Of a stretch of 64,000 bases of DNA, positions 31,799-59,105 are shown in pieces (within the stretch, counting starts at the first letter, position 1; each line of letters starts with the position of its first letter). The DNA is taken from the NCBI RefSeq assembly GCF_053078305.1, contig NZ_CP166879.1. The stretch is one strand, 5' to 3'. A model generated the notes under the pieces. It ran no database searches, was not told the origin of the DNA, and saw only the letters and a list, made by a program, of their open reading frames with translations. The position numbers and the translations under genes were made by a program.

Positions 31799-31802
31799 GA
31801 CT

Positions 31803-32180: not shown

Positions 32181-32181
32181 T

Positions 32182-33116: not shown

Positions 33117-33151
33117 CTGTTCTGCGTTAACACTTAATAATGAGAGATTGT

Positions 33152-33601: not shown

Positions 33602-33705
33602 AAGAGCGCCGTCGGTGCAGTTTTTTTCAGCACCCGGTGACACGGAATTTTATATACGGGGCATGTCTGTCTCTTTAATAAATCAGCATATTTACCGGAT
33701 ATCCG

Positions 33706-34425: not shown

Positions 34426-34560
34426 TTTGATTCAGATGCAGAGTGTGCGTTATTCAGAGGAAGAGGCTTAATTTTTATCATCCGGTTTTGAATTTATTGC
34501 TGATTGTCCCTTTGCCTTTGCGCACGCTGTCAGATACCAGTTGTCTGACGGAGTCGCATC

Positions 34561-35927: not shown

Positions 35928-35937
35928 GTAAGGGGAA

Positions 35938-37362: not shown

Positions 37363-37366
37363 GAGG

Positions 37367-37708: not shown

Positions 37709-37714
37709 GCAATC

Positions 37715-39233
37715 ATGACCACAAATAACTATCTGGAATATTTTCTGACTCTGCTGGGCTGGGTGGTGAATAACGGTCTGTGGAATGTGTTGATCAGCAC
37801 AGGACTGTTTGCCCTGCCACTGGCATTCAGGATCATCGGGATCTGGCTGAAAGTCAGGGAAGAAGGTGCGGATGAGGGAAACAAAGGGATGCTTTCCCTG
37901 CCGCGTATTGAGCATGTTCTCTATGGTGCTTTTTTTGTGATGATATCCTGCTGTGTTCCTCTGGTACAGGTGACGCTGGATACGCTGTCATTCGATAAAT
38001 CCAGGGCACAGACCTGTGGGGTATGGACACCTGAAGAGCCCGGAGAGACGGGGTACAGTGGGGTGATCAGCAGTATAGGGGATCAGACTGCTGCAGCCCC
38101 GGTATGGTGGGTGGTGGTTCATAAATTGTCGAAAGGTGTCACCCAGGCGGCAGTGGCTTCGATTCCGTGCCGGCCTGATTTGCGCCAGTTGCGTTTTGAG
38201 ATCCAGCGAACGTTTATAGAAAACAGGGCACTTGCTGATGAGCTGCAGGACTTTATGAACGACTGTTATTCACTGGCACTGTATGTGGAAACAGCGTGAT
38301 CAGGGGCAGAGTAAAGATAAAAAAGTGCTTGATGATATCTCCTGGATAGGGAGCGCCACATTCATGCAGGGGGATTACGGGACGCTGCAGTCAAAGATGC
38401 CGCGGGCTGCGTTCCCGTGGAATACAGCACGTGACAGCGGACGACCGGATACGGGGCGGGGAGGCTATCCGACATGCCGGGAGTGGTGGAGTGACAGTAG
38501 TGTGGGGCTGAAAAAACGGGTCATGGAGGAGGTCAGTGACCATTACTGGTTACGTCTGTCAGCTGCAATGAAGATGATTGGCAGTAGTCAGGTGGATTAT
38601 AAGGAGGAGGTGATCAAGCGTCTGGTGAGTCCGGCAAACCTGACGCTCTCTCAGGGGGGAGAGGTGTATCGTGGCTATGGTGGCAATGCAGATATGACGA
38701 CTATGAATGCGGTGGCCCGGATTGCGGGAACGGCGGGCAGTGCGGTAGCAGCACTGGGTGCGTTTCCGGCACTGGATGCAATGCGGCAGGCACTGCCGAT
38801 GGTACAGTCGATAATACTGATGGCGATTTACATCATGATACCGCTGATTCTGGCGTTTGCGGCATATGAACTGTCGACGTTAATCACACTGACGTTTGTG
38901 GTGTTTGCGGTACACTTTCTGACGTTCTGGTGGGAGCTTGCACGGTGGCTTGACAGCTGGATGCTGACGGCGCTGTACAGTTCGGATACACATACCCGGT
39001 TCAATATGATGGGATTCCAGAACACATCGGATGATCTGATAATGAATCTGGTGATGGGGACAATGTTTCTCGTCTTGCCGGCAGTGTGGCTGGGTGCGTT
39101 GTCCTGGGCTGGGGTGAATATGGGCTCTGTGGTTGGTGATACTTTTGGAAAAAGTACAAGTCATACCTTTCAAGCTGCATCAAAAAGTGGTGATCTTGCA
39201 TCTAGTGGAATTTCAAAAGGTATGAATAAATAA
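37715..39233 (+). pseudogene. traG: TraG-like conjugal transfer protein (TraG_N-type), apparently split by a frameshift near 38283-38299
   Basis: Two overlapping ORFs in different frames (37715..38299 and 38283..39233) together give about 510 aa with multiple TM helices typical of TraG_N. Could be a genuine frameshift or a sequencing error. Confidence 0.6.
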
Positions 39234-39235
39234 GA

Positions 39236-39267
39236 AAAAGTCCAGTATAATTTATACTGGACTTTTT
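39236..39267. terminator. bidirectional rho-independent terminator after traG
   Basis: Perfect inverted repeat AAAAAGTCCAGTATA-ATT-TATACTGGACTTTTT, with A/T tracts on both sides. Confidence 0.65.
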
Positions 39268-39671
39268 GAATAAGTATCATCATATGAAAGGCGTTTTTAT
39301 TTGTGTTGGTGAAATAAATGGAGATTCAATTTCTGATACAAATGGTGATTTATAAGATAGGTCTAAGGGCATGTCGTTATTATTTTTAATAACTGAAGCA
39401 GATTGTTTATTAGCCAAAAATGCACAAGTGACCTTTTTTACAAGGGAGTTGAAGGTCCATGGATTATCCATCGGCTTACAACGCCACATTGCTTTTTCAG
39501 ATTCGTTATTCATATCTATACCCTCGGCGCAGGATAAATAACACAGTGTTATCATACGTCTTGTATGATAAATGTGCAATCACATGTCTTCCATTTGATG
39601 AGAGGCTGTGACGCCACATTACCTTGGGACACGGGGATTCTGTTGAAATGATCCATCTGAGAATGTATCTT

Positions 39672-40588: not shown

Positions 40589-41683
40589 TTAGTTTTTAGT
40601 TTCCAACGGTGGTAATTTTTCAAGTGTCAGTAGTTCCTGCCCCTTTACCCGACGGCATTGGGAAGCTGCATCCTGAAGTTTTTCGCGAACGTTATTATCA
40701 TAGTCGGGATCCAATAGTTGGTATTGAAGACTATCTTTGTATGATTGAATGATATTTAGTGGACAGATAAGGCGTATATCACCGAGTGAATAAAGTTTTA
40801 CTGCCTTAAGTAAATAGTATTTTTCATCTGAAGAGCGAGCACTCTGCCAGGCTGAGTTTCTGAAATATTCAGCAGGATATGAGGTGGTCGGTATTCCATA
40901 AACATGAGGAGTCAAGTCCATGATTCCTGATATTTTAAGGAAAATAGTTAGTATTAGAGCTGGAACCATATGCACAAACGTAAAAATGAAGGCTAATATT
41001 CCAGCCATGATTCCGCCAGTCACAATTACCTGATTTAGCAAGCTGGTGCGGGTTCTTAACCTGAGGAAAACAATACAGGGAATAAGTGAAAAAATAATCA
41101 GAAGAATTGATAATACTATAACACTCAACACCTGCCAGAACTCGTTTATTCCTTCCGGGAATTCCAACGTATGAAGAAATAACTCAAGAGGAATAATATA
41201 TATGCAGGCTGCGTGGGTGAATAGCGTTGACTGTACAATATGCATGGAAAGAAACTTTTTGATCTGCTTCCACTTACCCTCTGTGCTTATCTGTCTATAA
41301 GTAATAGAGCCATTGAGACACAGAGAAAGTATAAAACTGCAAATCCAGATAATGCTTAACTGAAGTAGCACATATTGTTCAATTTCTTTTCCTGCGTTGT
41401 ACATGAGGAAAAAATAACCAAAAAATATCAGTGTTGATAATAGCGAGGTCAGAAGAACGATTTTGATGTTGTTTTCCGTCAGTTCATTCCGGAAATCACT
41501 TTCCCCTGGATAATTGGAAATATAGAATCCTGCCACTAGTGAGGGCATAAATAACGCCATGCAAAATAGGAGTACGCTGATACAAGCAAAGACCATCAGA
41601 TAACTGAACAATGATGAAAAAGAAATACTGTCAAAAAAAAGTCCTGTTTGTCCAATACGCGCAAGATGTGACCATATAAACAA
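40589..41683 (-). CDS. polytopic membrane protein of unknown function (low GC)
   Basis: 364-aa ORF with about 8 predicted TM helices and a C-terminal soluble tail; AT-rich codon usage unlike surrounding DNA. Confidence 0.5.
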   Translation of the reverse strand: MFIWSHLARIGQTGLFFDSISFSSLFSYLMVFACISVLLFCMALFMPSLVAGFYISNYPGESDFRNELTENNIKIVLLTSLLSTLIFFGYFFLMYNAGKEIEQYVLLQLSIIWICSFILSLCLNGSITYRQISTEGKWKQIKKFLSMHIVQSTLFTHAACIYIIPLELFLHTLEFPEGINEFWQVLSVIVLSILLIIFSLIPCIVFLRLRTRTSLLNQVIVTGGIMAGILAFIFTFVHMVPALILTIFLKISGIMDLTPHVYGIPTTSYPAEYFRNSAWQSARSSDEKYYLLKAVKLYSLGDIRLICPLNIIQSYKDSLQYQLLDPDYDNNVREKLQDAASQCRRVKGQELLTLEKLPPLETKN

Positions 41684-42026: not shown

Positions 42027-42521
42027 CTATCGACAAAAAACCATATTAATTCTTTTGGAAAAAAGAAAATAAGGTATCCATATAACAACACCAAATATTC
42101 CACTCACTAATAATCTGATATTATCTGAATCCAGCTGTACGTCAAAAAGAATAGCCGGTAATAAAGTAAGATAGAGAGCAATAATCAGTCCTGTTGCATA
42201 ATAAGCGATCATGGCTTTTCGAGTTCCTTTTTTGCGTCTGAAAAACAACCACGTTGCATAAAGGGAAACAATGAATCCACATATCAGCAACACAAATGCC
42301 CCCATAGCGTAATAAGATAAAAAGCCAGTTTCATTGAAATAATTGAATGCAGTTATGGTAAAACTGTAAAGTTCAATAGTACTACCAATAACACCCAAGA
42401 TAAGTCCCAGAGCAGGAAGATATAATAGTCCATTAATTTTACTTAACTCTTCTCTTTCACAGGCATCACACAATCCCGACTCTTTGTTTGCTTCTGACAT
42501 TTTACATTTTATACATTCCAT
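42027..42521 (-). CDS. zinc-ribbon plus four-TM membrane protein of unknown function (low GC)
   Basis: N-terminal CxxC...CxxC (MECIKCK...CDACE) followed by four hydrophobic helices. Confidence 0.5.
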   Translation of the reverse strand: MECIKCKMSEANKESGLCDACEREELSKINGLLYLPALGLILGVIGSTIELYSFTITAFNYFNETGFLSYYAMGAFVLLICGFIVSLYATWLFFRRKKGTRKAMIAYYATGLIIALYLTLLPAILFDVQLDSDNIRLLVSGIFGVVIWIPYFLFSKRINMVFCR

Positions 42522-42606
42522 TTTTTATTCCATTATTCATTGCGTTACGATAATGTTTAGTTTTTTAAACATCCCCCACCACATGTATGGGGATTGTTGC
42601 AAATCT

Positions 42607-42862
42607 CACTTAGGATCTGATGGTGTTTTCTTACGGGAGTTAAATTTATCTATTAAATTAAATACTATTGTAGCTAATGTTATTGCTGTTCCTGCTATAC
42701 AACCAAAAACGATAGCTCTTTTAAACTGATTCACTGGAAAATAAAACCCATCACCTTTAAAAAATAAAAGATTGAAACCGCCCCTCCCAGAAATAGTAAC
42801 ATGACTATAGATGATAAACAGCTATAAAGGAACAATATCACATAACTATATAGTTGTTTCAT
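42607..42862 (-). pseudogene. degenerate orphan cdiI-like immunity gene (frameshifted paralog of 43100..43348)
   Basis: DNA is homologous to cdiI; translation from the ATG at 42862 stops after about 42 codons, and the conserved C-terminal part (...IVFGCIAGTAITLATIVFNLIDKFNSRKK) continues in another frame. Confidence 0.5.
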
Positions 42863-43103
42863 TTTTTCTTATCCTCTGACGAACCTTTCGGTTTATTGAG
42901 TTATTGGCTCCTTCAGGTAACTCACCTTTGGCAAGTTTATCCAGTCCTGCCTGCTTCTGTTCCGAGGTGAGATTATTGGCATCAGCATACTGATTCCATG
43001 AGGAAACCGCCTGACCATAACTCACCATTCCTGATGGAAGACTGAGCGAGTTATTCTCAACAACAATCCTAACCGCAAAGGTTGGGATTGTTGTTAATCT
43101 CAC
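42846..43103 (-). CDS. orphan CdiA C-terminal fragment (VENN-containing, truncated)
   Basis: 85-aa ORF containing VENNSLS and a segment (SWNQYADANNLTSEQKQAGLDKLAKG) paralogous to the start of the main CdiA-CT; lacks the Gly-rich toxin core. Confidence 0.5.
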   Translation of the reverse strand: MRLTTIPTFAVRIVVENNSLSLPSGMVSYGQAVSSWNQYADANNLTSEQKQAGLDKLAKGELPEGANNSINRKVRQRIRKNETTI

Positions 43104-43348
43104 TCAGGATCTGATGGAGGTTTTTTACGAGAATTAAACTTATCGATCAGATTAAAAACTATCGCTGCTAGTGTTATCGATGTACCTGCTATGCACCCAA
43201 ACACAATAACTCTTATCATTTGGTGGGTCGGGAAAAAAAAGAATCCTTTTGTTAGGTAAATAAATAAAGCTCCTCCCCCCATCAAAAGAAATCCACTGAT
43301 GATACAAAAGAGGCATGCATATATGAACAATACAATGTAAGCAATCAT
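43100..43348 (-). CDS. cdiI: CdiI immunity protein (small two-TM membrane protein)
   Basis: 82-aa ORF whose start overlaps the cdiA stop (ATGA); two hydrophobic helices. Confidence 0.65.
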   Translation of the reverse strand: MIAYIVLFIYACLFCIISGFLLMGGGALFIYLTKGFFFFPTHQMIRVIVFGCIAGTSITLAAIVFNLIDKFNSRKKPPSDPE

Positions 43349-46300
43349 TTCCCCTCCTCCTTCTTCGCGCTAGAAGAGAACTGATTATTACTACTTGCTT
43401 CTTTTATATATCCACCAAGAAATTCACTACCAAAAGATCCTGTCGCATCAAATATAAATCCCGGAAACTCTTTCCCAGTAACTGAGTTTACTATTCCGGG
43501 AGCATATACTCCAAATGCTCCACCCAATCCGGCCCCGGCAGCAGCCCCTCCAATAGAGCCTGTATTTGGACCATCGGTAAAGAATGCACCACCCATCGCA
43601 ATTCCGACGTTTTGTCCGACAGTTCTCCCCGGCGCAAGCATACCCGCAATGCCTGAACTGGCACTGCTTTTCCAGTCCCAGTTTTTGTTTTCATTACCTG
43701 GCTGGCTTAAATCAAACCACTGGTAACTTCCATTGGCTATCTCCGCGACGACTCCACCACTGACCATTTTACCGACCGAAGCAGCAGGCCCCAGATACCA
43801 TGCCCCGGCAATCATTACACCATCCTGATATCCATCCACGATCACTTTCGTGATATTGGTGCTGTCCGGCATATCACCTTTCGCTATCTTATCCAGTCCA
43901 GCCTGTGTTTGTTCCGGTGTCAGATTATTGTCCACCGCGTACTTGTTCCATGATGTAGCCGCAGCAGCATTGCTTTCAAAACCATCACCGAAGCTGAGCG
44001 CATTATTCTCAACCGTCGTCTTACCTGACTGTGCTCCGGCTACCGCTGAAGCTCCCGAATCTCCCACCAGACCACCGGCCAGGCCGGCAGCAACCGTTGC
44101 CAGTGTCGAGACCGTCTGCTTCTCTGTCCCGCTCAGTTCACTCACCGGCTTACCGTACATCTGTGTGGCTATCATTCCCACCACCTCGCCGGTGGCTGCG
44201 CCTGCGGCACCAGCCAGAGCATTCTTACCCTGTGCCAGAGACAGGGCTGCATTCACTACTGCATGAGCTGCCACACGTCCCGCACCGTCCGGGGTGGTCT
44301 GTTTGATAATTTCAGCAATATACGGTGCTGCACCACCTGCCAGGGCTGCACTCAGATTACCGCCGGCCAGCCCCTGTACTGCTGCCGTTGCGGCCTGTAT
44401 CGCCTGCTGGTATTTGCCTCCCGTTCCAAAACCTGAGGCCGCCATACCGTTATTGTAGGCCCGCTGCGCCACATCCTGTTCCGTGAACGGTTTTCCTGCT
44501 GCCTCAAGCTCCTCACGGGCCTGATTCAGTGCTGCCGGGTCCCGCTTCGCTTTCTCACCAGCTATCTGGCCTTCCGTTCTGGCAATATCTGCCACCTGGT
44601 TACCAATCTCACCAATGAGCTGCGCCTGCTGCAGTCGCTGCTGCTCTTTTTCCCTGTCAAAGATGGGGGACAGCGTCTGGTTTGCATGTGCTGCGTCACG
44701 GTTCAGGTCTGCCACATCCTGTTTCTGGCTCTGCGTATCCCGGATGGTGATATTCCCGGCAGACACAGCCGACTGAGTGGTGCTTTCTGCATGGCCTTCA
44801 TGATTTGCACCAACCAGCAGATTGTTGGCCATATTTCCCGCGAACTGGCCACCGATGCTGCCGCCAGTGCTGATACCCACGCTCTGGTGTTCAACTTTGT
44901 AATCAGCACGATTTTCGATATCACGGAAGCCCAGTGTACCGGTATCCAGCCGGTTTTTATCTGCCGTTGCCGTGGACGCAATCACCGCACCGTTCAGTTG
45001 CGTATGCTGTCCGGTGGTGACATCAAACCCGCCCCTGCCGGCAAAAATCCCCGTCTGCTCCTGCACACTGTCATAGTTACTGTGCATTTTATCCCGGCTG
45101 AGGCTCACACTCGCCGAACCGCTCATGGACCCGAAAGTGAAGCTGCCTCCGGCACTGGCATTCTGCTGCTTACTGTCATAACGGTCACTGTCCTGCTCAC
45201 TGGTCAGTGTCAGATGACGACCGGCATCCACTTTCACCGTTTCACCGCCGGCCTGCACGCCGGTAAGCGTGGTGTCCCGCCCGCTGATAATGGTCAGGCG
45301 GTTTCCCGCATCCACCGTGGTTTCTGTATGGGTGGTACCGTTGCCTTTTTCACTGCCCTTACCCTGGTTTGCGCTGGCTGAAACACTGATACCCCAGCCT
45401 CCGGCCCCCACACCGATACCGACACCCACACTGCCGCCACTGGATGAGTTCTTTCCTTCCAGCTTTGACGTGTTTTCTGCTGATACCAGATTCACGTCAC
45501 GGTTTGCCTGCAGCAGAACGTTGTTCCCTGCCTTTATCTGACTGCCCTGTATCGTCAGGTCACCATCCACGTCCTTCACGCCGGAGCCGGTGGCCTGAAT
45601 ACTGAGGTTATTACCTGCGGTCAGGGCGCTGTTCTTCGCCACCGTCTGCTCTGACTGCTGTTCTGATTTCGAAGACTGGCTGCCGTAAGAGAGGCTGATA
45701 CCCACGGCATTGTTATTCTCTTTCTGGTTGCCCTGTGCTTCTGCCAGTCGTCCGGCCTGCACGGCCTGAGCCCCCGAGAGCGCGGCCTTCACCCCCTGCA
45801 GGGCTTCAAGCCGGCTGTTTCCGGCAGATTTCGCCGCCTGCACGGTCTCCACCGTCGTGTTCAGGGCGCTGCCCACTGTGCCGGACAGGGCAAGCGTCAG
45901 ACCGGAGGTTTTCTGCTCCACCGAATGCGTCTGCACATGCCGGTCTGTGACGGCGCTAATGCTGACCTCCTTACCACTGAGTGCCATGTCCCTGCCGGCA
46001 ATCAGGTCAGCACTGTTGGCGCTCAGCCGGTTACCTGCCTGAAGGGAAACATCACCGTGAACACTCCCCACCGTGCTGCCTTTCTGTGTGCTGTCTGTTG
46101 CGGTGTCCGTGACTTTCAGACTCTGGCTGCCCACACTGAATCCCACACCTCCGGAGCTCATCAGCCCGGATTTTTTCTCCTGTTTCAGGTGTGTTTCACG
46201 GTTGCTTTCTGTCAGCGTGCCGATACTCAGGTCATTTCCGGCAGCCAGGGAGACACGGTTATCCCCGGCCACACTGCTGCCCGTGACGTTCAGATTATGT

Positions 46301-49300
46301 CCGGCACTGATACTGACCGTATCCCCGTTCAGTTCACTGCCCGTCATGGTCCGGCGGTCAGTGACATCATGCGTGGTTGTGGTGGTTTTCGATAACATCC
46401 CGCTGCTGCCGGTCACTTTATGGTATTCATCCAGCGAGCGGGTATTCTGTGCACCGGTCAGCGTCACGTCATGACCTGCCATCAGGGCCAGGCCTTTCTG
46501 AGCTGACAGCGATGCCGCCTGTGACGTCATATCCCGTCCGGCGGTCAGCGTGACATCACCGTTACCGGCAAGCGTGCTGCCCGTACTCTGTGTGACGCCC
46601 TGCGACAGACGATTATTTTTATCCCAGATAATATTGTCCTGCGCGGAAGTGGTCACTGTGGAAAGCGTCATATCCCTGCCCGCACTGAGTTGCGTCAGGC
46701 TGTCCTTACCCTGATTCACCACCGTTGCAGCCGTCAGATTCATATCCCGTCCGGCCTGCAGCACCAGTCTTCCCTGGTCGTTCTGCACATACACGCCGGC
46801 CACACTGTCGATACTGGTACGTTCAAAATGGTTCTGTCCGGCGTCGCGCTGTGCCGTACGGGTGGTGGTGGTCAGACTGATATCCCGTCCGGCCATCGCC
46901 AGCAGGCTGTCCGTGGCCTGCAGCAGCCCGCCGGTACTGTTAATATCCGTCCGGGCCGTCAGGCTGACATTTGCTCCCTGAATGGAGCCGGCCTGGTTGT
47001 GAATGTTTTCTGCACTGAGCTGCACGGTCTGCTTCCCGGCCAGTTTACCGCTGTTAAACAGGTCACCATCCAGCTTCATCACCATGTCCCTGCCGGCAAT
47101 CAGCGCACCGGCACTGTTCACATCACCGGGTTTTACACGGGCATACACCTGAGGTACCTGAACTGTCTGCGTGCTGCCGTCCGGCAGTGTCACCGTGGTG
47201 TTAACCAGCCAGACAATATCCCCGGTCAGTAACGCCATCTGCTCAGCCGTCAGCGCCACACCCGGTTTCAGGTTGTATTGCTTACCAAATGCAATACCCG
47301 CATCCATTAATGCCTTAAACTGCTCTTCATCACTGCCGTATCTGTCCAGGTACCGTTGCCCGGTCAGAGCGACAACCTGCTCTCGAATCAGACGCTGCTC
47401 GTAAAAACCGTCTCCCAGACGTTTGAGCATGTTATCCCCGTTCTGAGAAAACGCCTTCTGCATGTAATCACTGCCCAGCCACATCTTCTGGTTCGTAAAA
47501 CGCGGGTCCGTTTCAACCAGATATGGCACATTCACTGCCGGATTTGTTTTAAACAGACTGCTGTCCGGCAGACGGGTATCCGGCCCGGCAACATGGATAC
47601 TGCCCTGAGGTGTGCTGACTTCAAACTGCTGCCCCGGCAACAGAATGACCGGTTCACCGGCAGACACCACCGGGCGAAGCGGTATCCGGTCAGTAGCGGC
47701 TACTGCCGCATCCACATTTCCGGCCTGTCCTGTCTGTACATCCGTTCCCTGTGGCTTCAGAGGAGAAAGCGTGACCTGGCTGCCCTGAATCTGTCCGTGG
47801 CTGGTGAGCTCTCCCGGCTTCAGCGTAATGCTCTGAATTACAGTGGGCGGAGTGTACTGAGAGGTTTTCTCCCCCTGCTTATCCTTTCCTTTTTTCCTGA
47901 TACGGTAATAATACGTGGATGTTCCTGAGTCCGTAACATGCCGCTCGCCACTGACACTGACATTTTCCACGCTTCCTGACGGAATGGTCAGCAGGCCGCC
48001 TGCAACAACCTGACTCTTATCATTAAGCAGTTTGTCTGCCACAATCGTCATGCCGGCACCGGACAGAATTTTTCCCGGGTCGGAGTCTTTTACCCGGGTT
48101 TCTTCCACGGTACGGGTGTAATCATACTGCGTGAATTTATCTCTGGCGCCTTCCGGTGTATGCAGTTTTTTCAGTGAGTTACTGGAATCGTTATCCACAT
48201 AAACGCCCGGTTCACCGGCGCTCCAGCGTTTATCTGAGCCGCTGAGCTGATACTCAGTCACCTTTTCCGTGGAAACCACCACGCGCTCCGTGGTGAAATG
48301 GTCATTGACGTTATTGATTTGTCCGGCACTCAGTACCAGATATCCGGCGGCTTCAATAGTGGCACTGTGATTATTCAGTACACCGGCTTTCCCCGTGGCG
48401 GCACCATTCGCATCCAGCATGCCACCAGTATGCATATCACCTGCACTGTAAATCAGGCTGTGCGTCCGGTTATTCAGGGTCTGTACCCCTAAGTCCACAC
48501 GCTCACGCCCGGCCAGCGTCGCCGCCACGCCATTTTCTTCCAGATTATTAAATGTGGCAGCGCTGACACCAACAGCATCGCCGTAGATTCGCCCGGTACC
48601 GGAATTCGTCAGGGTGTTCGCCTGAAGATGCGTATATTTCCCGTCAATCAGCCCACGGTTCAGCAGTGTGTCCGTCACGTTAAGCCAGGTCTGCCCGGCA
48701 CTGATTTCACCTTTCTCTGTGTTTTCAAGGCGGATGCTGTTCAGGTCAAGCCGGCTGCCTGCCAGCAGGCTGCCGGTATTAGAGACATCGCCATTAACGG
48801 AAAGCGTAAGGTTTCCGTTCGCAATAGTCTGACCACTGTTGCTGAACGTTGTGTTACTTTTCAGCGTCATATCGCCCAGCGAAAGCAGTTTCCCGTCACC
48901 ACCGAGCTGACCGGCATCCACAGATACTGACTGCCCGGCCTTAACCACGCCGTCACGGTTCGAAAACGCCAGCTGACGGCCACTGACAGACAATGTCGCG
49001 CCGGAAGAGAGGACGCCGTCATTATTACTGAGCGTCCTGTCTGCCATAACCGTAAGCGCCCTGTCTGCCAGAATACTGCCCTCCTGGTTATCAAGGTCCT
49101 GCGTCGTGATGTGTATTGTCTGCGCTTCCAGCCCCTGACCGGTATTCTGCGTGTGGCGATTGATAAACTGCAGGGCGTTCAGCGTAATGGCGGAACCACT
49201 GCGAATCAGACCAGAGACGTTGTCCACAACGCCCCGTACACTGTTGAGCAACATGTCGCCCACAGACTGTATTTGTCCGTGGCTGTTCTGCAGACCTCCC

Positions 49301-52290
49301 GTATGCAGACGGAGTTCACCTTCACTGACCAGCCGGCCCCCCTCACGGTTATCCAGCGAGGTGGTGCTCAGGTCAGCTGTCGTTTTCGCCCCCACGGTCC
49401 CGCCCCGGTTATCCATTGCTCCGGTACTGACAGTCAGTTCCTGCAGGCTGTTCAGCGTACCGCGTCTGTTATCCAGCGTCTGGCCTGCGGTATTAATGCT
49501 GATACCCCTCCCCTGAATAAGACCGGACTGATTGTTCAGCGCCTGGCTGTTCCAGCCGAGCAGACCGTTTGCCACCATCTGACCGGATGTATTGTTAACC
49601 ACGCCTGCAGTCAGGGACAGAGCATCTCCCGACAAAAGCACACCGGCAGTGCTGTCCAGTGTGCCGGCATTCAGCGTCATCGGACCCTGACTGATAACCC
49701 CGCCCCGGTCACCACTATTACGGTTACTCAGTGTGTCAGCACGGAGATTCAGCGATGCACCGCTCTGTATCAGGCCGCCGGCATCGTTGATGATATCCGT
49801 CGAGGAAAGTGTCAGTGACTGCTGTGCCACCAGTCTGCCGCCCTGATTATCAAACCGTGTGACATCCAGCCTGCTGTTACCGTTGCTGACCACCGTCCCC
49901 TGCTGATTTTCCAGCACACTCAGGTGCGTATTCAGGTCCCCGCCGGCGGCAAGCGCCCCTTCCTGATTACTGACATCACCACCACTCAGCAACATATCCG
50001 TCCCGGCCTTCAGTGCGCCTTTCTGGTTCATCAGCGTACCTGACGATATCTGTAATGACGTCTGACTCCCCAGCACGCCCTGACGGTTATCGAGCGTTCC
50101 GGCGTTCAGGGTCATATCCTTCTGACCCGCCATAAATCCCTGCTGGTTATTCAGCATACCGGCCCGCACTGTCAGGGTACCGGCGCTGCTGATACCACCC
50201 CGTGTTTTCGTGTTCCGGTTACTGAGTACCCCGTCCTGTACATCCAGCGTCATGTCACTGCCGGACTGAATCAGACCATCATCAGAGACCAGTTCGCTGC
50301 CTGACACAGACAGCGTTTTCTGTGAAAGCAGTCTGCCGGACGTATTATCCAGCGCACCATCCAGCGTCACAGACAGCCCGTCAGCCACCACCGTACCCTG
50401 GTGGTTATTCAGATTCCCTGCCGAAATATCCAGCCTGCCGGCGGACTCCATTCGTCCCTCAGTATTGCTGACAGCCTGCTGTGTTTTTATCCTGCCCGTT
50501 CCGGCAGCAGCTGAAATCAGTCCGTTGTCGTTATTCAGCGCCTGTGTATTAATCAGGATGTCACGGCTGGCAAGCAGACGTCCCTGCTGGTTATCCACGG
50601 CGCCGGTTGTCCTCACCTGCAGACTGCCTGACTGCGCCGCCTGCACTTTCCCCCTGCGATTATCAAGGCTCAGTGCATCCAGACGCACCGCGCCATTTGC
50701 CGCAAACAGCCCTTCCCGGTTATCCACGCTTCCCGGCAGACTCAGCGAAAAATCCCCTGTTCCCGTCTGAGTCAGACTGCCTTTACGATTTGACAGGCTT
50801 TGTGCCGATATCTGCAGTGTGTCGGCATTTATCGTGCCACCATTATTGCTGAAGTGCCCGACAGTCCGGGCGGAAAGCGTACCGGCACTCAGTTGCGCAT
50901 TCTGTGTGGACAGATTTCCACTGGTTGCATCCAGCTCAGTATGTTGTCCCTGTATCCGGCTGTTGCTTAAATCCAGCCCCTGCCCCTTCAGTTGCATGTC
51001 CCCACCGGACAGAACCTGTCCGTGTGCCGCCAGTTCGCCGGTGGTACTGACAGTCAGGTTGCCCGCTGCCGCCAGACGTCCGTCATCTTTCACCCCGGCG
51101 GCCAGCAGACTCCGCTCACCGCCGGTCAGACGCGCTGTCTGAATCCGGGTGTTGCGACGTGATGCCACAGAGCCTGTATGGGTGAAGACACCATCACTCT
51201 GTATCTGCGTATCCTGCCCCGCATAAACAGAACCACTGTTATGCAGCTCCCGGGTTGTCGCCAGATGCACATCCGTTTTCGCACTGATACTGCCACTGTT
51301 TTCAATACGTCCGTCAGCCGTCAGGGTAACCGCCCCTGCCTGTGCACCAATATGACCGGCGTTACGAACACCCACCCCCGTTTCCGTACCGACAAGGCGA
51401 ATTTTTCCGGCATACATTCCGCCAAGACTGGCCACATCCAGTGCCATCTGAGGCTGTGAAGAGACATCACCGGTCTTTTTCTCAATCTGCCCGTGCGCGA
51501 TATCCACATTGTTACGTCCTGTGGTCACTTTCAGATCCTGCGCCCAGATACCCGCATTAATCTTCACAGACCGGGCAATGATATCGGTATAATCCGTGCG
51601 CGAGGCATCCATCCCTTTGCCCGTAACCTGAATCTCACCACGTTCAACACTGAATCCGGTCAGACTGCCGTTTTTCATCTGCGGCTGCCCCGTGGTCAGC
51701 GTGGCCCGGTTCGCATTAATAAAACCGCACCCGTCGCAACTGATGCCGGCCGGGTTCGCAATCACCACCTGCGCCTTTTTACCGGCAACCTCAACAAAAC
51801 CGTTCAACTGGCTGGGATTGCGACTGTTCACTTCATTAAGAATGATTCTGGCCTCTCCCTTAGCCAGCCACGGGTTCCCGGCCACCATGCCACCCAGTTG
51901 AGTCTGCACATTGTTATGGGCATTATTCAGAATGACGCCCTGGTTACCGACGTCGAACTGGCTGTATGCGTTATGTGAAACCCCGCCGGCAGAAGGCGTC
52001 TGAATATTCACCTGCGGAATGCCGCTGGCCGTCTGCGTAATCGTGGGCTGCTGATACCCTGGTGCGCCATGGTCTGCGACAATGCCTGCAGCACTGACAG
52101 AATGCACCATCCCCGAAGCCAGCCACAAAGAGAATGCAAGCGGCGTGACACGGCAGATACGTTGCCTGTGTGGATATCCTGTGCGGGAGGACAGTGATGT
52201 ACCGGCGCGACCGGAACGGGCAATATCTGCCACCACCATCAGCATTCCCCGGGCTTTGTTAAAAATAATGCGGTAACAATTTCTGTTCAT
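43345..52290 (-). CDS. cdiA: CdiA, contact-dependent growth inhibition exoprotein (TpsA/filamentous-haemagglutinin family)
   Basis: 2981-aa ORF; extended TPS signal peptide MNRNCYRIIFNKARGMLMVV, TPS domain with NPAGISCDGCGFIN, long haemagglutinin-type repeats, VENN motif at 44002-44013, then a 218-aa Gly-rich hydrophobic C-terminal domain (43348-44001). Confidence 0.9.
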   Translation of the reverse strand: MNRNCYRIIFNKARGMLMVVADIARSGRAGTSLSSRTGYPHRQRICRVTPLAFSLWLASGMVHSVSAAGIVADHGAPGYQQPTITQTASGIPQVNIQTPSAGGVSHNAYSQFDVGNQGVILNNAHNNVQTQLGGMVAGNPWLAKGEARIILNEVNSRNPSQLNGFVEVAGKKAQVVIANPAGISCDGCGFINANRATLTTGQPQMKNGSLTGFSVERGEIQVTGKGMDASRTDYTDIIARSVKINAGIWAQDLKVTTGRNNVDIAHGQIEKKTGDVSSQPQMALDVASLGGMYAGKIRLVGTETGVGVRNAGHIGAQAGAVTLTADGRIENSGSISAKTDVHLATTRELHNSGSVYAGQDTQIQSDGVFTHTGSVASRRNTRIQTARLTGGERSLLAAGVKDDGRLAAAGNLTVSTTGELAAHGQVLSGGDMQLKGQGLDLSNSRIQGQHTELDATSGNLSTQNAQLSAGTLSARTVGHFSNNGGTINADTLQISAQSLSNRKGSLTQTGTGDFSLSLPGSVDNREGLFAANGAVRLDALSLDNRRGKVQAAQSGSLQVRTTGAVDNQQGRLLASRDILINTQALNNDNGLISAAAGTGRIKTQQAVSNTEGRMESAGRLDISAGNLNNHQGTVVADGLSVTLDGALDNTSGRLLSQKTLSVSGSELVSDDGLIQSGSDMTLDVQDGVLSNRNTKTRGGISSAGTLTVRAGMLNNQQGFMAGQKDMTLNAGTLDNRQGVLGSQTSLQISSGTLMNQKGALKAGTDMLLSGGDVSNQEGALAAGGDLNTHLSVLENQQGTVVSNGNSRLDVTRFDNQGGRLVAQQSLTLSSTDIINDAGGLIQSGASLNLRADTLSNRNSGDRGGVISQGPMTLNAGTLDSTAGVLLSGDALSLTAGVVNNTSGQMVANGLLGWNSQALNNQSGLIQGRGISINTAGQTLDNRRGTLNSLQELTVSTGAMDNRGGTVGAKTTADLSTTSLDNREGGRLVSEGELRLHTGGLQNSHGQIQSVGDMLLNSVRGVVDNVSGLIRSGSAITLNALQFINRHTQNTGQGLEAQTIHITTQDLDNQEGSILADRALTVMADRTLSNNDGVLSSGATLSVSGRQLAFSNRDGVVKAGQSVSVDAGQLGGDGKLLSLGDMTLKSNTTFSNSGQTIANGNLTLSVNGDVSNTGSLLAGSRLDLNSIRLENTEKGEISAGQTWLNVTDTLLNRGLIDGKYTHLQANTLTNSGTGRIYGDAVGVSAATFNNLEENGVAATLAGRERVDLGVQTLNNRTHSLIYSAGDMHTGGMLDANGAATGKAGVLNNHSATIEAAGYLVLSAGQINNVNDHFTTERVVVSTEKVTEYQLSGSDKRWSAGEPGVYVDNDSSNSLKKLHTPEGARDKFTQYDYTRTVEETRVKDSDPGKILSGAGMTIVADKLLNDKSQVVAGGLLTIPSGSVENVSVSGERHVTDSGTSTYYYRIRKKGKDKQGEKTSQYTPPTVIQSITLKPGELTSHGQIQGSQVTLSPLKPQGTDVQTGQAGNVDAAVAATDRIPLRPVVSAGEPVILLPGQQFEVSTPQGSIHVAGPDTRLPDSSLFKTNPAVNVPYLVETDPRFTNQKMWLGSDYMQKAFSQNGDNMLKRLGDGFYEQRLIREQVVALTGQRYLDRYGSDEEQFKALMDAGIAFGKQYNLKPGVALTAEQMALLTGDIVWLVNTTVTLPDGSTQTVQVPQVYARVKPGDVNSAGALIAGRDMVMKLDGDLFNSGKLAGKQTVQLSAENIHNQAGSIQGANVSLTARTDINSTGGLLQATDSLLAMAGRDISLTTTTRTAQRDAGQNHFERTSIDSVAGVYVQNDQGRLVLQAGRDMNLTAATVVNQGKDSLTQLSAGRDMTLSTVTTSAQDNIIWDKNNRLSQGVTQSTGSTLAGNGDVTLTAGRDMTSQAASLSAQKGLALMAGHDVTLTGAQNTRSLDEYHKVTGSSGMLSKTTTTTHDVTDRRTMTGSELNGDTVSISAGHNLNVTGSSVAGDNRVSLAAGNDLSIGTLTESNRETHLKQEKKSGLMSSGGVGFSVGSQSLKVTDTATDSTQKGSTVGSVHGDVSLQAGNRLSANSADLIAGRDMALSGKEVSISAVTDRHVQTHSVEQKTSGLTLALSGTVGSALNTTVETVQAAKSAGNSRLEALQGVKAALSGAQAVQAGRLAEAQGNQKENNNAVGISLSYGSQSSKSEQQSEQTVAKNSALTAGNNLSIQATGSGVKDVDGDLTIQGSQIKAGNNVLLQANRDVNLVSAENTSKLEGKNSSSGGSVGVGIGVGAGGWGISVSASANQGKGSEKGNGTTHTETTVDAGNRLTIISGRDTTLTGVQAGGETVKVDAGRHLTLTSEQDSDRYDSKQQNASAGGSFTFGSMSGSASVSLSRDKMHSNYDSVQEQTGIFAGRGGFDVTTGQHTQLNGAVIASTATADKNRLDTGTLGFRDIENRADYKVEHQSVGISTGGSIGGQFAGNMANNLLVGANHEGHAESTTQSAVSAGNITIRDTQSQKQDVADLNRDAAHANQTLSPIFDREKEQQRLQQAQLIGEIGNQVADIARTEGQIAGEKAKRDPAALNQAREELEAAGKPFTEQDVAQRAYNNGMAASGFGTGGKYQQAIQAATAAVQGLAGGNLSAALAGGAAPYIAEIIKQTTPDGAGRVAAHAVVNAALSLAQGKNALAGAAGAATGEVVGMIATQMYGKPVSELSGTEKQTVSTLATVAAGLAGGLVGDSGASAVAGAQSGKTTVENNALSFGDGFESNAAAATSWNKYAVDNNLTPEQTQAGLDKIAKGDMPDSTNITKVIVDGYQDGVMIAGAWYLGPAASVGKMVSGGVVAEIANGSYQWFDLSQPGNENKNWDWKSSASSGIAGMLAPGRTVGQNVGIAMGGAFFTDGPNTGSIGGAAAGAGLGGAFGVYAPGIVNSVTGKEFPGFIFDATGSFGSEFLGGYIKEASSNNQFSSSAKKEEGK

Positions 52291-52842
52291 TCTGATAAAC
52301 CTGACTTATCTCTCCGGCACATCCACAGCAAGCGGGTGCTGCACACGCCACTGGCGCGCCTCTTCACGACTGACCTGTGCACCCCGGAAATTCATCACCC
52401 GTAACCCGGTCTGCTGCCCACGGTGGTACAGCGAACGCCAGCACAGACGGGGAAAAATATCCTGCCGGACAAGACGACTCATATCCGGAGTGTGTCCAAA
52501 AGGGGCAACCCAGTCACAGACCCACATCCGGTCGCCGCTGTTCCAGTCCGACTGAGGCATGAGAATTGCCGGCTGCGTAAGATAACGCGCCTCTGCCTCC
52601 GGGCTGAGCCAGGCCTGGCTCATGAAGAAAACCGGTCGCCCCTGCTCTGTTGCCACCACATACTGTCGGTGCTTAATCACCGGCAGCTGCAGGTCCGGCA
52701 GGGTATGCAGTGGCGCATCACGATGCAGGGGGGAGTGCATCCACAACCAGACGGCCGCCCCCAGGACTTCCGCCTCATTGACCGGCTCACCGGAATACAG
52801 GGGACTCAGAACGTCATATTTCCCGTTACGCATGAAACTTTC

Positions 52843-54582
52843 TCAGAAATCCCGGAACAGATTAAAACCGGCTGTCACATCACTCGTCATAAAACCCGCC
52901 GGCTTTGAAAACGGACGACCGATGAAAACGTCATAATCCGTACTGAACAGTTGCCCCCTCAGCCCCACAACACCACCGGCCAGATGACGTCCCACCAGAT
53001 ATTCACTGCCGGCTCCCCCCACCTCGCCGTAATCCATTCCCAGATATAACGCCTGCTCCGGCAGTGGCGTACGCCAGGCCAGGTCGTTGCGGATATACCA
53101 GCCGTTACTGGCATTCAGCGTTCGCTCCCCGTCAAAACCACGAACCGTCCAGCGGTTACCGATGGCAAACTGTTCCTGTGGGGTCAGCGGGGTATTGCTC
53201 AGCTGGCGCTGATACCGGAAGGAATAACTGAAGGGCTGCTCTGCCAGTGTAAAGGGCAGATTAAAGGATGCATTCATCTGCAGGATCTTACTGAGCGCCG
53301 TTGCCTCACCGAAGATTTCCTCCGGTGCCGGCTGTGCACCAAACCAGCGGGTTCCCCGTTGCCAGCTGACACCAGCATCCAGTGTGGCCTGAGAAATATA
53401 ATGACGGTGCTGCAGCCCAAGTCGCCAGGCCGCTGTCTGCCGGCGCTGCACCTGGATTTCCGTATCATTAATGTAGTTACGCGACCTGCGGGCCTGAACA
53501 TCGTAAGTCAGCACCGTTTTCTGCGTCCCGTTACGATGCAGTACCCGGCTCAGCTGCATGCCCAGATTCTGACTCTCGCCACTGTACTGGTAATCCTCAA
53601 CCGCACCAGCTACCGTCTGATGGTAATCGTAATCACTGGCGGTGACGGAAAACTGCCAGTAACCGAAAGGCACAGAGTAATGGGCCGTGTAGTTTTTACT
53701 GCCCTTACCCCCGTAATGTGGAAAATTATGGGTGGCAGAAACATACAGCAGGTCACTCAGGGAAAAAGGATTATCCAGAGAAAATGTTATACCACCGAGA
53801 TAACGCCCTGTGCTGCGGGTACCTGAATCATCAAGCGAAAACCCCAGTCGCCAGTATTTATCCTGTTTACGGGTAATAAGAATATCACTTTCCCCTGGCT
53901 GCTCACCGGGCACAATTTCCATATCAGCCTGCACACCCGGCAGTCGTTGCATATTCTCCAGCCCCTGCTCAATGTCCCGTAAATCCAGCAGAGAACCTTC
54001 GTGTGCCGGGAATGAGGAATACAACTGAATATAGTCATCACTGTCCGGTGTCAGACGCACATGTCGCACAACACCGGGAATAACAACCAGCCGGAGGATA
54101 CCGCTTTTTAAATCCTGCGAAGGTGCCAGAACACGGGTGGTGACATAACCATGATCGACAAGACGGTTCTGCAATGTACTCATCAGCAGATTAATTCCTT
54201 TCGCCCCCAGGCAATGCCCGACCGCCCCGTTGGCGATTTTTTGTAAAGGCAGCCAGTGTGGTAACGCATCAGCCCCCTTCAGTTCCGTCTGTTTAATCTG
54301 AAAACAGGGCGTTTCAACAGGAAAATTAATCTTATGGGCAAAAGAGCCAGGTGCAGAAAGGCGAACATCAGGGGCTGAAGGCGTCAGTTGTTGCTCAAGG
54401 GCTTCCTGACGCTGCTGCTGAATGATAAATGTATCCTCTCCACTACGCCGGATATCCGCGGCCTGAAGAGATAAAGGCGATAATAAAACAGACATCAGTG
54501 TCAGTGATAAAATGAACGGACAGCGCCGGAATAAGCTTTGTTCCTCAGCCCTCTCGTTCCTGCAACATAATTTTCCAGCCAA
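52843..54582 (-). CDS. cdiB: CdiB, TpsB-family outer-membrane transporter
   Basis: 579-aa ORF directly upstream of cdiA on the same strand; signal peptide, POTRA-like region and C-terminal beta-barrel ending ...FNLFRDF. Start may instead be at an internal Met (about 54495). Confidence 0.85.
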
Positions 54583-55203
54583 ACGAAAAACCTTTTATGC
54601 ATGCTGTGTCAACAATCACCAGCCTCCTGACGATGTCTGCCGCCATTTTGGCAATAACACACTACCGCCCTTCCGGAATTCCCCGTATCAACCGGTACCA
54701 GAATGCTGAGTAACCAGTCAGCCAAATCAGGCTGGTTTAATTTTGCTCATTATAGAATAATGATCTGAAAAATATCAATATAACAGGTGTATCGATCGTA
54801 ATTGCAGATGCTTGCAGATCTTTATTCCAGTATATGTTGTCAAGCTGGAATATTTAGAAATATATATCCATGACTAATGTGGAAATACAGAAAATTATTC
54901 CAGTGAATGCTTTTTATACGGTCTCCTGGCACAGAAAATGGTGATTTTTGATTTGAATCATTGAAATCAGTTCTGCTAATAAGAAGACATGCTGAAAAGC
55001 CGATTTTCAGGGGGTGATTGAAGGGATTGTGAGTTTTTCCTTCGGCTTTTAACGTAACTTCCTGTTTTCCTGATATTCCACGGCAAGATTAATTTTTAGC
55101 GGAGCAGAATGAATAAAATCTTCATCTGGTGTTTTTGCTGCGCGTAAATGCAGGTGTAACTGTGGATGTTATCCACTGAAGAGCTGCTGATGAGGATGAA
55201 GAC

Positions 55204-56444: not shown

Positions 56445-56603
56445 TTATCTCAGAATAAACATTGATGAATGGTAATAACAGGGACTGTTAATACTGTCCC
56501 TGTTATTTTTTCTGCAGACTGTTTTCTGTTCTTCCTGGTTATGTTCTGAGTGATGATGATTGACGCCTTTTATACGCTCTGATATGCTCAGAATGCATTA
56601 TCT

Positions 56604-56840
56604 GTCGCTTCGGCGACCACCAATGCTCCATAAGTGGTCTGAGAGGAGCGCCTTCGGGTGGCCACATCCCGCTTCGGTGGGCACCAATGTTCCGTTGATC
56701 TGAGAGGAACGCCTTCGGGTGATCAACACCCCCGTAACCTGAAAGGGGATGTGCAGCCAGGATGTTTCTGGTGGTGGTAAATCTGCCCACCTTTGAGAGC
56801 AGATATCGTCAGTCATGATGATGAAGGTTTCTTTTAACCG
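56604..56840 (+). repeat. structured repeat element, copy 2; left direct repeat flanking the recombinase module
   Basis: Near-identical to 58871-59105 and to the last two sub-units plus tail of 12233-12528; the similarity continues about 20 bp past the element. Confidence 0.55.
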
Positions 56841-57467
56841 CGCCCTTTATTACGGGCAATACACAGCAGTGGTTGTGTGATCCTTATCTATCCGGTGATG
56901 CCGGAATGTTTTTACTGCGTAATGGCGGTATTGACTTCTTTTATTCTTTTCATTTGTTTGCCAGCACTTCCTGCGACTGTGCGCGCTGTATAAGACCATT
57001 TGAAATTTGGTCGCTTACGCGTGTACCTGGCGTCTGAAGCTGCGCGGCGTCACTTTCGTCAGCGTGTCACGATGACAAAGTGACGCACGCGCGTCTGCTT
57101 AACGAACCCGCACGAACTGCCGTTTCACGTGATGTTTTTTAACATTTGAAGAAGTGACCCGGCGTGAGAGTGTTTTTTCAACCTCTTCTGCAAATTTACG
57201 GACGATTTTGTGAATAACGTCCATAAATGGTTTTTTGCAGAATTAATTGTTTTTTAAGGAGTTTTATGTAGTGAGATGCCGAATCGGCGATACCACTTAT
57301 TAGAGGTGGTGTCGGGGGCGACCTGGAGACAGGTACAGCAAATGCTGCAGTCGGTGTGCAACACCGATTTGTTACCCCTCAATACCTAAACAATCTGCGC
57401 TACCCTGGCGCACAGGCAGTCACTACCCGAAGGATCGCAACGTTTAACCGTGTCGTCAGGGAGAAAT

Positions 57468-58826: not shown

Positions 58827-58870
58827 CTTGACATTCATCTTTTGTGATTTAAAAATATACAGGCTTATAT

Positions 58871-59105
58871 GTCGCTTCGGCGACCACCAATGCTCCATAA
58901 GTGGTCTGAGAGGAGCGCCTTCGGGTGACCACATCCCGCTTCGGTGGGCACCAATGTTCCGTTGATCTGAGAGGAACGCCTTCGGGTGATCAACACCCCC
59001 GTAACCTGAAAGGGGATGTGCAGCCAGGATGTTTCTGGTGGTGGTAAATCTGCCCACCTTTGAGAGCAGATATCGTCAGTCATGACGATGAAGGTTTCTT
59101 TATAA
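58871..59105 (+). repeat. structured repeat element, copy 3; right direct repeat flanking the recombinase module
   Basis: Near-identical to 56604-56840. Confidence 0.55.

Follow-up and report, generated by a model that had tools for sequence, protein, structure and literature searches.

An intact E. coli class IV cdiBCAI locus, very probably tipped with an ionophore toxin, and the decayed toxin/immunity module beside it

What does a CDI locus do to its target cell, and does a second toxin/immunity module lying beside the first still take part? These questions are raised by a locus in the window analysed here, a stretch of 64,000 nucleotides from contig NZ_CP166879.1 (assembly GCF_053078305.1). 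It is very probably an intact E. coli class IV cdiBCAI locus (in the order cdiB-cdiC-cdiA-cdiI) with an ionophore toxin tip; that an E. coli integrative conjugative element carries it as cargo is, with the same high confidence, part of the best explanation. The CdiA protein and its toxin type are already known, having been catalogued and tested in a 2024 paper (PMC11630599).

All features described below lie on the minus strand, where open reading frames and Pfam searches bear out the CdiB/CdiA pair of the initial annotation, with its TPS signal, TPS domain and 2981 residues. The cdiB gene (52843-54582; 579 aa if read from the TTG that gives the longest ORF, though its real start codon is uncertain) encodes an outer-membrane two-partner-secretion transporter that matches the Pfam families POTRA_2 (1.9e-22), POTRA_3 (2.8e-17) and ShlB (2.2e-109). 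The cdiA gene (43345-52290, stop codon 43345-47) encodes a 2981-aa protein with Pfam matches to ESPR (7.5e-10) and TPS (7.4e-57), and several Fil_haemagg repeats within residues 1-1000; the extended signal peptide (ESPR) and the TPS secretion domain span residues 1-330 (51301-52290). A PT-VENN pre-toxin domain (43993-44145; PF04829, E = 2.7e-19) leads into the toxin, and a small immunity gene, cdiI (43100-43348), lies directly 3' of cdiA, overlapping its stop codon by 4 bases. A transporter with POTRA domains, an exoprotein with TPS domain and FHA repeats, a PT-VENN domain and an immunity gene, all found here, are the marks of a CDI two-partner-secretion system. NCBIfam gave no match for CdiB, CdiC, the C-terminal toxin region (CT), CdiI or the orphan module. 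RefSeq names for such genes are 'hemagglutinin repeat-containing protein' and 'hypothetical protein'.

The order cdiB-cdiA-cdiI, as first proposed, overlooked a gene. Between cdiB and cdiA lies an ORF of 175 codons (52306-52833) whose product belongs to the HlyC/TAAT family of lysine acyltransferases (Pfam HlyC PF02794, E = 7.6e-31), and the locus is therefore of the class IV cdiBCAI type, whose means of delivery have been on record since 2021 (Halvorsen et al., mBio, PMC8510554). Position 37 of this CdiC is His and position 107 is Asp, the catalytic residues defined in that work (PMC8510554); its homolog in strain 154 carries the RefSeq name 'toxin-activating lysine-acyltransferase'. The class IV type binds the LPS core via a lipidated receptor-binding domain (PMC8510554); its receptor is the inner core, and the lipid is a 3-hydroxydecanoyl group. 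A putative domain of this kind extends from Val1328 to Pro1589 (47524-48309), with landmark residues of the receptor-binding domain (RBD) and of Arg-C numbered as in CdiA-STEC4: V1328, R1465, K1466, K1467, G1468, K1469, R1535 and P1589 all carry the published numbers (PMC8510554), and it is by the coincidence of these landmarks only that the domain was likened to RBD-STEC4 (EJK97217.1). It includes the KKGK acylation motif Lys1466-Lys1467-Gly-Lys1469, with the Lys1467 codon at 47890-47892.

Going by what is known of the family, CdiB would export CdiA to form a filament on the cell surface, and CdiC would acylate Lys1467 in the receptor-binding domain, which would help CdiA to bind the LPS core of a neighbour. 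After binding, the C-terminal 218 residues would be cut off at VENN in the target periplasm. CdiI, for its part, would sit in the inner membrane of the producer and neutralise the ionophore domain, so that sibling cells are protected. The 82-aa CdiI is of the SG17-G18 type, and it is a membrane protein of two helices, in line with the two-TM immunity protein of the initial annotation: two strongly hydrophobic segments reach Kyte-Doolittle values of up to 2.7, and its length falls inside the 72-100-residue range of EC93-family hairpin immunity proteins.

The alternative that survives best is that the locus is an inactive relic, its frames intact but its genes silent, for want of expression, or blocked, for instance through shielding by O-antigen. 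Strain 154, the closest complete genome, gives this some credit, as the annotation there treats cdiB and cdiA as pseudogenes or fragments. In the window, however, none of the four genes cdiB, cdiC, cdiA and cdiI is interrupted, the catalytic residues and the acceptor lysine are preserved, and an ORF of 8.9 kb that has been kept open argues for selection. A strong promoter-like site is also found upstream of cdiB (54749-54778), of the sigma-70 type, with TTGATA and TATAAT separated by an 18-nt spacer and 11/12 matches, a function being suggested by this resemblance only. A relic is thus unlikely, if not negligible, and an intact class IV locus is the preferred reading.

The identity of the toxin was approached through an exact-sequence look-up, which found the CdiA of the window to be identical to GenBank KFD79096.1. 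This accession is listed among the "group 3" alpha-helical CDI ionophores in the S1 Appendix of Halvorsen et al. 2024 (PLoS Genet, PMC11630599). In the PSI-BLAST search made there with EC93, it stands inside the group 3 block with 19.6% identity and E = 1e-14; in the search with 94-3024, it shows 64.43% identity, E = 2e-56 and a length of 2981 (PMC11630599). The 94-3024 values equal those of HBC0854646.1, the SG17-G18 representative, and in the EC93 search the two accessions share identity, coverage and length, with E-values of 1e-14 vs 2e-14. In addition, the published SG17-G18 cdiI primer CH6251 matches positions 43329-43348 exactly. From the equal BLAST statistics and this 20-nt primer match, the CT of the window appears to be CT-SG17. 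On a chimeric CdiA, CT-SG17 inhibits growth, and only the cognate CdiI protects (PMC11630599). Targets lacking acrB (delta-acrB) resist all representative group 3 toxins, and CT-SG17 needs AcrB (PMC11630599). Inner-membrane depolarisation was demonstrated for representatives of each ionophore group, not necessarily for CT-SG17 itself (PMC11630599). What defines group 3 is an entry domain akin to the one in AcrB-dependent Ntox25 toxins (PMC11630599); the window combines such an entry domain with homology to CT-EC93, a glycine zipper and a two-helix CdiI, the features that characterise the group.

Downstream of cdiI lies a second, smaller assemblage, described at the outset as a truncated VENN fragment with a frameshifted cdiI paralog and as the footprint of module displacement. 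Comparison with the intact module of RM13745, by which its lesions were located, bore out all three points. An ORF at 42846-43103 carries VVENN (VENN at 43050-43061) and about 50 residues resembling the start of the main toxin; the toxin fragment proper (42903-43061) comprises VENN and about 49 codons, shares 97.5% identity with the beginning of the RM13745 CT, and ends at a 454-bp deletion (junction 42903/42902). The cdiI that follows (42606-42862), of the 1473e/RM13745 type, is split into two ORFs, 42731-42862 and 42606-42734, by a 1-nt deletion (junction 42765/42764). Its start matches the published 1473e cdiI primer CH6248 exactly at 42839-42862. In all likelihood, this orphan is the dead leftover of a toxin/immunity module displacement, of the 1473e/RM13745-like subtype of group 3.

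It has to be weighed whether the orphan region might nonetheless function, the split cdiI or its C-terminal half-ORF giving immunity to 1473e-type toxins. The orphan cdiI aligns with a copy in STEC1588 in one blastn piece across the frameshift site at 99.1% identity, which suggests, at the level of sequence, that the frameshift is common to the STEC1588 copy, and that frameshifted copies may be shared by different class IV loci. The second half also retains a GTG start, and its single transmembrane helix is almost the same as helix 2 in the main CdiI. Against this, both CdiI helices are predicted to form the hairpin (PMC11630599), and the frameshift parts helix 1 from helix 2. Furthermore, the frameshift site, TTTTATTTT, is not a long homopolymer, and slippage rescue is therefore unlikely. 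There is also no toxin left in the orphan to select for retention of the immunity gene. A functional orphan is accordingly very improbable, and the region is best read as a dead leftover. The near-identical orphan cdiI copy of STEC1588 adjoins a different orphan toxin.

The array ends at its 3' side with a DUF2569 membrane-protein gene (42027-42521; Pfam DUF2569, E = 1e-33). This family also occurs downstream of the cdi arrays in STEC1588 and in the EC93 plasmid pCP127. A third CT copy downstream of the DUF2569 gene, as found in STEC1588, was absent from the window by tblastn, and PADLOC gave no match for CdiI, the DUF2569 protein or a 364-aa ORF. That this conserved tail (a frameshifted 1473e-type cdiI and a DUF2569 gene) is more than debris is a long shot. 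Immunity against ionophores could, for instance, be supplemented by the one-helix C-terminal half-ORF or the DUF2569 protein; alternatively, the tail could provide a fixed downstream homology arm for recombining new CT/cdiI modules into class IV loci.

The VENN motif, from which the residues of the CT are counted, was indeed found at 44002-44013 and is followed by exactly 218 residues, as the initial annotation had it; VENN corresponds to CdiA residue 2760. These 218 residues had further been described as Gly-rich, with GxxxG spacing, and hydrophobic. The composition (17% Gly, 12.8% Ala and 9.6% Ser) and the spacing stand: glycine occupies each fourth residue from G148 to G168 of the CT (V of VENN being residue 1). 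The hydrophobicity is only moderate, with a maximum 19-residue Kyte-Doolittle mean of 1.3, and the toxin resembles an amphipathic sequence more than a classical transmembrane segment. Comparison of the residues after VENN with known families, the check that had been proposed, gave a profile match to the EC93 ionophore and no nuclease match in Pfam or PDB. By hhalign, a profile of 107 CT sequences matched the EC93 CT over 135 columns with a probability of 96.4% and E = 1.3e-9. In the alignment with EC93, G156, G160 and G164 of the zipper fall on G168, G172 and G176; G164 is present in 107/107 homologs, while G160 and G168 are each present in 100/107. A Pfam search of the CT at E <= 10 returned PT-VENN as the sole match, with no nuclease, Ntox25 (PF15530) or colicin domain, and the CT family, searched as a profile against the sequences in PDB, returned nothing at E <= 1. 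The group 3 listing of KFD79096.1, the EC93 homology and the aligned zipper all favour the membrane-inserting ionophore or pore toxin, rather than a nuclease, that had been suggested from the letters of the DNA.

The two-part architecture of the CT, a receptor-dependent entry domain followed by an ionophore domain, was absent from that first account. The entry domain covers CT residues of about 5-89 (43747-44001, the boundary being approximate) and the ionophore domain residues of about 90-222 (43348-43746), with the zipper G148-G168 at 43510-43572; the junction between them was deduced from a chimeric orphan in STEC1588. By tblastn, the entry domain matches that of cdiA2 of EC93 pCP127 (WP_061892950.1, an Ntox25 toxin) with 62.5% identity and E = 1e-5, a match limited to the first ~50 residues, the rest of the alignment being gap-rich. 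The main Ntox25 toxin of STEC1588 has no similarity to the entry domain of the window CT, and therefore not every Ntox25 toxin has that entry domain. As shown by homology, the toxin joins an entry domain of the AcrB-dependent type to an alpha-helical CDI ionophore domain of the EC93 family. The AcrB dependence so predicted partly draws on the N-terminal helix, about a third of the entry domain.

The shape of the toxin bears on whether it could instead be a beta-barrel ionophore of the Ntox25 type. Modelled alone with AlphaFold2 (AF2) from the 107-sequence alignment, the CT is all-helical, with five helices in residues 76-204 and a mean pLDDT of just 43.8. A fused CT-CdiI model, for which the linker was added to every row of the CT-linker-CdiI alignment, is confident in two places only, CdiI and the first helices of the entry domain: the CdiI hairpin (helices 243-282 and 289-322 of the fusion) reaches a pLDDT of about 90 and CT helices 8-24 and 29-41 reach 79-91, whereas the ionophore domain is a mix of helix and strand at 30-50; its strands (residues 76-136, of low confidence) in part replace helices of the CT-alone model. 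The models are too uncertain to confirm a five-helix bundle or the contact surface of CdiI. A barrel draws on those strands, on the entry helix common to the EC93 CdiA2 Ntox25 toxin, and on the Ntox25 annotation given by RefSeq to the STEC1588 chimeric orphan, which has this C-terminal domain type. Yet PF15530 has no match in the CT, convincing BLAST similarity to the EC93 Ntox25 CT is confined to the first ~50 residues, the CT-alone model is all-helical, and the CdiI of the window has 82 aa vs about 160 aa for the Ntox25 immunity proteins compared. A barrel can hence be given very little weight beside an alpha-helical ionophore.

Equally remote is a cytoplasm-acting enzymatic toxin (nuclease, tRNase, deaminase or similar) with CdiI as an unrelated small membrane protein: most of the CDI toxins characterised so far are nucleases, and several related cdiA genes go under the RefSeq name 'effector tRNA nuclease', a label also borne by EC93 cdiA1, whose toxin is the known ionophore, but no Pfam enzymatic domain or PDB sequence match was found, homology to the EC93 ionophore extends over 135 columns, the glycine zipper is conserved, the two helices of the immunity protein form a membrane hairpin, the same CT type has been published as AcrB-dependent with cognate-only membrane immunity, and depolarisation without nucleic-acid damage has already been reported for family representatives.

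As a discovery, the locus matters little, with its CdiA in GenBank and in the supplementary catalogue of the 2024 study. The value of the analysis is one of annotation, as the locus can be named precisely, unlike under the RefSeq labels. In the orphan, the displacement of one group 3 ionophore/immunity module by another, and the decay of the displaced one, can be followed base by base.

Among known systems, the closest is CT-SG17-G18/CdiI-SG17-G18, which shares the CdiA BLAST statistics and the 2981 aa, and whose cloning primer equals the 5' end of cdiI; apart from the slightly unlike E-values of the EC93 search, no difference from the SG17-G18 pair (HBC0854646.1 and HBC0854645.1) was detected in the BLAST statistics and primer compared. 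CT-1473e/CdiI-1473e (MBM2980480.1 and MBM2980479.1) and the intact RM13745 module are the counterparts of the orphan. Its DNA is 97.5-98.5% identical to the RM13745 module, and the start of its cdiI equals the 1473e cloning primer; unlike that module, the orphan lacks 454 bp of toxin, and its cdiI has a 1-nt frameshift. Between the main module of the window and that of RM13745, identity is 72.5% for the CT and 57% for CdiI.

In its delivery apparatus, the locus resembles CdiA-STEC4 (E. coli STEC_O31, PMC8510554), with cdiC between cdiB and cdiA, His37 and Asp107, KKGK at 1466-1469 and the landmarks of the receptor-binding domain. CdiA-STEC4, however, has an Ntox25 toxin and Cys1243, whereas the CdiA of the window has an alpha-helical ionophore and Ser1243. 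Ntox25 (PF15530) CDI ionophores and the T6SS effector Tse4 also depolarise membranes, and some have a related AcrB-dependent entry domain; in contrast to a helical bundle, they are predicted beta-barrels, and Pfam Ntox25 has no match to the window CT.

The prototype CDI ionophore, EC93 CdiA-CT/CdiI of group 1, differs in its entry domain, which comes from a different group, and in an identity to the window CT of about 20-24%; EC93 CdiA is of class I (BamA receptor, cdiBAI without cdiC), whereas the CdiA of the window is of class IV. Both systems nevertheless have the VENN motif, entry and ionophore domains, an aligned G-x3-G-x3-G zipper and a small two-helix CdiI (79 vs 82 aa), and AcrB dependence has been published for the EC93 toxin and for the toxin type of the window alike.

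The CDI locus lies on the minus strand and comprises cdiB (52843-54582, 579 aa; Pfam POTRA_2, POTRA_3 and ShlB), a 175-aa ORF (52306-52833), cdiA (43345-52290, 2981 aa) and cdiI (43100-43348, 82 aa), which shares a four-base overlap with the cdiA stop. Transcription would start from a promoter-like site at 54749-54778. The initial annotation named cdiB, cdiA and cdiI, all of which are present, but overlooked the ORF between cdiB and cdiA, which by sequence is cdiC, encoding a toxin-activating lysine acyltransferase of the HlyC family (PF02794, 7.6e-31). The gene order cdiB-cdiC-cdiA-cdiI is the hallmark of class IV CDI loci, described by Halvorsen et al. 2021 (PMC8510554), and places the locus in this class. 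Class IV CdiA recognizes the LPS inner core, and CdiC puts 3-hydroxydecanoate on Lys1467 in the CdiA receptor-binding domain (RBD; PMC8510554). In the window, the catalytic His37 and Asp107 of CdiC are both present, and Lys-Lys-Gly-Lys occupies residues 1466-1469 of CdiA. When residue numbers are compared with those of CdiA-STEC4, Arg1465, Arg1535, Val1328 and Pro1589 coincide with the published boundaries of the Arg-C peptide and the RBD construct (PMC8510554). LPS-core recognition and CdiC-dependent lipidation may be expected in the window strain.

CdiA carries ESPR, TPS (7.4e-57) and haemagglutinin repeats at its N-terminus, and PT-VENN (2.7e-19) close to its C-terminus (Pfam). VENN, at residue 2760 (44002-44013), is followed by 218 residues, and these positions and counts, like the 2981-aa length, are as initially annotated. 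The tail after VENN contains 17% Gly and 13% Ala, with a glycine at each fourth position from G148 to G168 (V of VENN = 1). The C-terminal toxin region (CT) is only moderately hydrophobic, while CdiI has two strongly hydrophobic segments, in keeping with the two-TM immunity protein proposed earlier.

The reference for such toxins is that of E. coli EC93, the original CDI toxin, which dissipates the proton gradient (PMC11630599). Its relatives were systematically searched for by Halvorsen et al. 2024 (PLoS Genet, PMC11630599), yielding 864 E. coli CdiA proteins whose CTs comprise 89 unique sequences and fall into six groups. Every one of these CTs is predicted to combine an N-terminal entry domain with a C-terminal five-helix ionophore domain, the glycine zipper being their sole common feature, and each is paired with a two-helix immunity protein of 72-100 residues (PMC11630599).

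Both EC93 toxins were extracted from plasmid pCP127 for comparison. With hhalign, the profile of the window CT family (107 sequences) matches the EC93 ionophore CT (probability 96.4%, E = 1.3e-9, 135 columns), which supplies the comparison with known CdiA-CT families suggested at the outset. In the pairwise alignment, the published EC93 zipper glycines G168, G172 and G176 correspond to G156, G160 and G164; G164 is found in 107/107 homologs, and G160 and G168 in 100/107. The first entry helices (…SWNKYAVDNNLTPEQTQAGLDKIAKGDMP) are 62.5% identical to the second EC93 toxin, the Ntox25-bearing CdiA2 (WP_061892950.1), whose entry domain is modelled as AcrB-dependent (PMC11630599); judged from sequence, this likeness fits the group 3 definition of that study. 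Neither Ntox25 nor any nuclease or colicin domain was returned for the CT by Pfam, and its sequence matched none of the chains in PDB. AlphaFold2 predicts the CT alone as all-helical, though unreliably (pLDDT 43.8): the model begins with four short helices at the N-terminus, and a further five lie within residues 76-204, the fourth of which holds the zipper. In a CT-linker-CdiI fusion model, the CdiI hairpin (pLDDT about 90) and the first entry helices are confident and the ionophore domain is uncertain. Homology to EC93, the zipper, the lack of a Pfam nuclease and the listing in PMC11630599 uphold the proposal of a membrane-inserting ionophore rather than a nuclease; the initial annotation was sound, save for cdiC and the two-part CT. 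The CT would be cleaved at VENN, the helical bundle would enter the inner membrane from the periplasm, and CdiI would neutralise it within the membrane.

The truncated VENN fragment and frameshifted cdiI paralog noted downstream are indeed a degenerate second module. Its ORF (42846-43103) reads …VVENNSLSLPSGMVSYGQAVSSWNQYADANNLTSEQKQAGLDKLAKGELPEGAN and continues, in the wrong frame, into the region that holds the ribosome-binding site of the second cdiI. Lesions were mapped by alignment to the intact RM13745 module (main CdiA-CT plus 85-aa CdiI), to which the orphan is 97.5-98.5% identical: the toxin has a 454-bp deletion (junction 42903|42902), and cdiI lacks one base (junction 42765|42764), the split falling between its two helices. 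The RM13745 CT is 72.5% identical to the main CT, and its CdiI 57% identical to the main CdiI, with differences mostly in helix 1. The orphan cdiI start equals the published 1473e cdiI primer (PMC11630599), so the displaced module represents another tested group 3 subtype; 1473e and SG17 do not cross-protect (PMC11630599). E. coli STEC1588 carries a 99% identical copy of the orphan cdiI, aligned as a single blastn piece across the frameshift site, behind a chimeric orphan toxin that retains its ionophore domain. If the frameshift is common to both, it predates the 454-bp deletion. The STEC1588 orphan toxin (L003, 2785-3339, minus), labelled an Ntox25 protein in RefSeq, is a natural chimera of an Ntox25-type entry region and a 1473e-like alpha-helical ionophore domain. 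At 43050-43110 (minus), the sequence after the cdiI stop (AACAACAATCC…) forms, by eye, an inverted repeat with the orphan RIVVENN-coding bases (…GGATTGTTGTT), so that the orphan VENN codons belong to a hairpin that closes the main cdiI gene; a terminator scan did not score this hairpin.

A gene for a DUF2569 membrane protein (42027-42521, minus; Pfam E = 1e-33) directly follows the orphan cdiI; the protein has a Cys-rich motif at its N-terminus. This family also terminates cdi orphan arrays in STEC1588, where the 3' end of the gene continues into VENN of another orphan ionophore CT, and in pCP127. Further downstream, a very hydrophobic 364-aa multi-pass ORF (40589-41683, minus), hypothetical in the E. 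coli O22:H8 strain 154 annotation, has no match in Pfam, NCBIfam or PADLOC.

The locus is surrounded by an integrative conjugative element (ICE) with IS66 copies, and cdiA has a G+C content of about 56%, against 35-43% for the flanking DNA. The 3' end of the locus is 100% identical to the strain 154 chromosome, and the whole 17-kb region 97.9%, so the source of the window is an E. coli related to strain 154 but distinct from it. The locus sits at the ICE edge (window about 25000-39300, plus; strain 154 record L001, 6070-10729), annotated in strain 154 with TIGR03756 and TIGR03757 ICE proteins, TraG and IS66 copies; ykgM/ykgO-type ribosomal protein paralogs separate the ICE genes from the cdi tail. 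In strain 154, the closest complete genome (L001, 21658-25996), the annotation breaks cdiA and cdiB, intact in the window, into several fragments or pseudogenes, a difference that may stem from genuine decay or from homopolymer errors in its assembly. Three STAXI RNA motifs (12360-12525, 56603-56768 and 58870-59035, plus; 76-94 bits, gathering score 40.5) and one EFASI RNA (57268-57425, plus; 53.2 bits, gathering score 51.2) were also detected, two STAXI copies and the EFASI copy lying just upstream of the cdi locus by an integrase-like gene.

The feature has already been described, down to its protein accession: by exact-sequence look-up, the 2981-aa CdiA is GenBank KFD79096.1, which is present in the S1 Appendix of PMC11630599. 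There it stands within the group 3 block of the EC93 search (19.63% identity, E = 1e-14) and in the search with 94-3024, of group 3 (64.43% identity, E = 2e-56, length 2981). Of 5426 complete E. coli genomes, only 5 contain SG17-type CT DNA with high identity along most of that sequence; in 3/5, the match ends a few bases before VENN and is annotated only as 'hypothetical protein', which suggests orphan copies. CT-SG17 is among seven group 3 toxins tested, with protection by cognate CdiI only; delta-acrB targets resist the tested group 3 toxins, including CT-SG17, and representatives of every group depolarise targets in the DiBAC4(3) assay (PMC11630599). For the SG17 subtype, to which the window toxin appears to belong, the published work thus covers growth inhibition, immunity from the cognate CdiI only and dependence on AcrB; for group representatives it covers depolarisation. 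The named representative SG17-G18 (HBC0854646.1) has the same values as the window CdiA in the 94-3024 search and the same identity, coverage and length in the EC93 search, with a slightly different E (1e-14 vs 2e-14).
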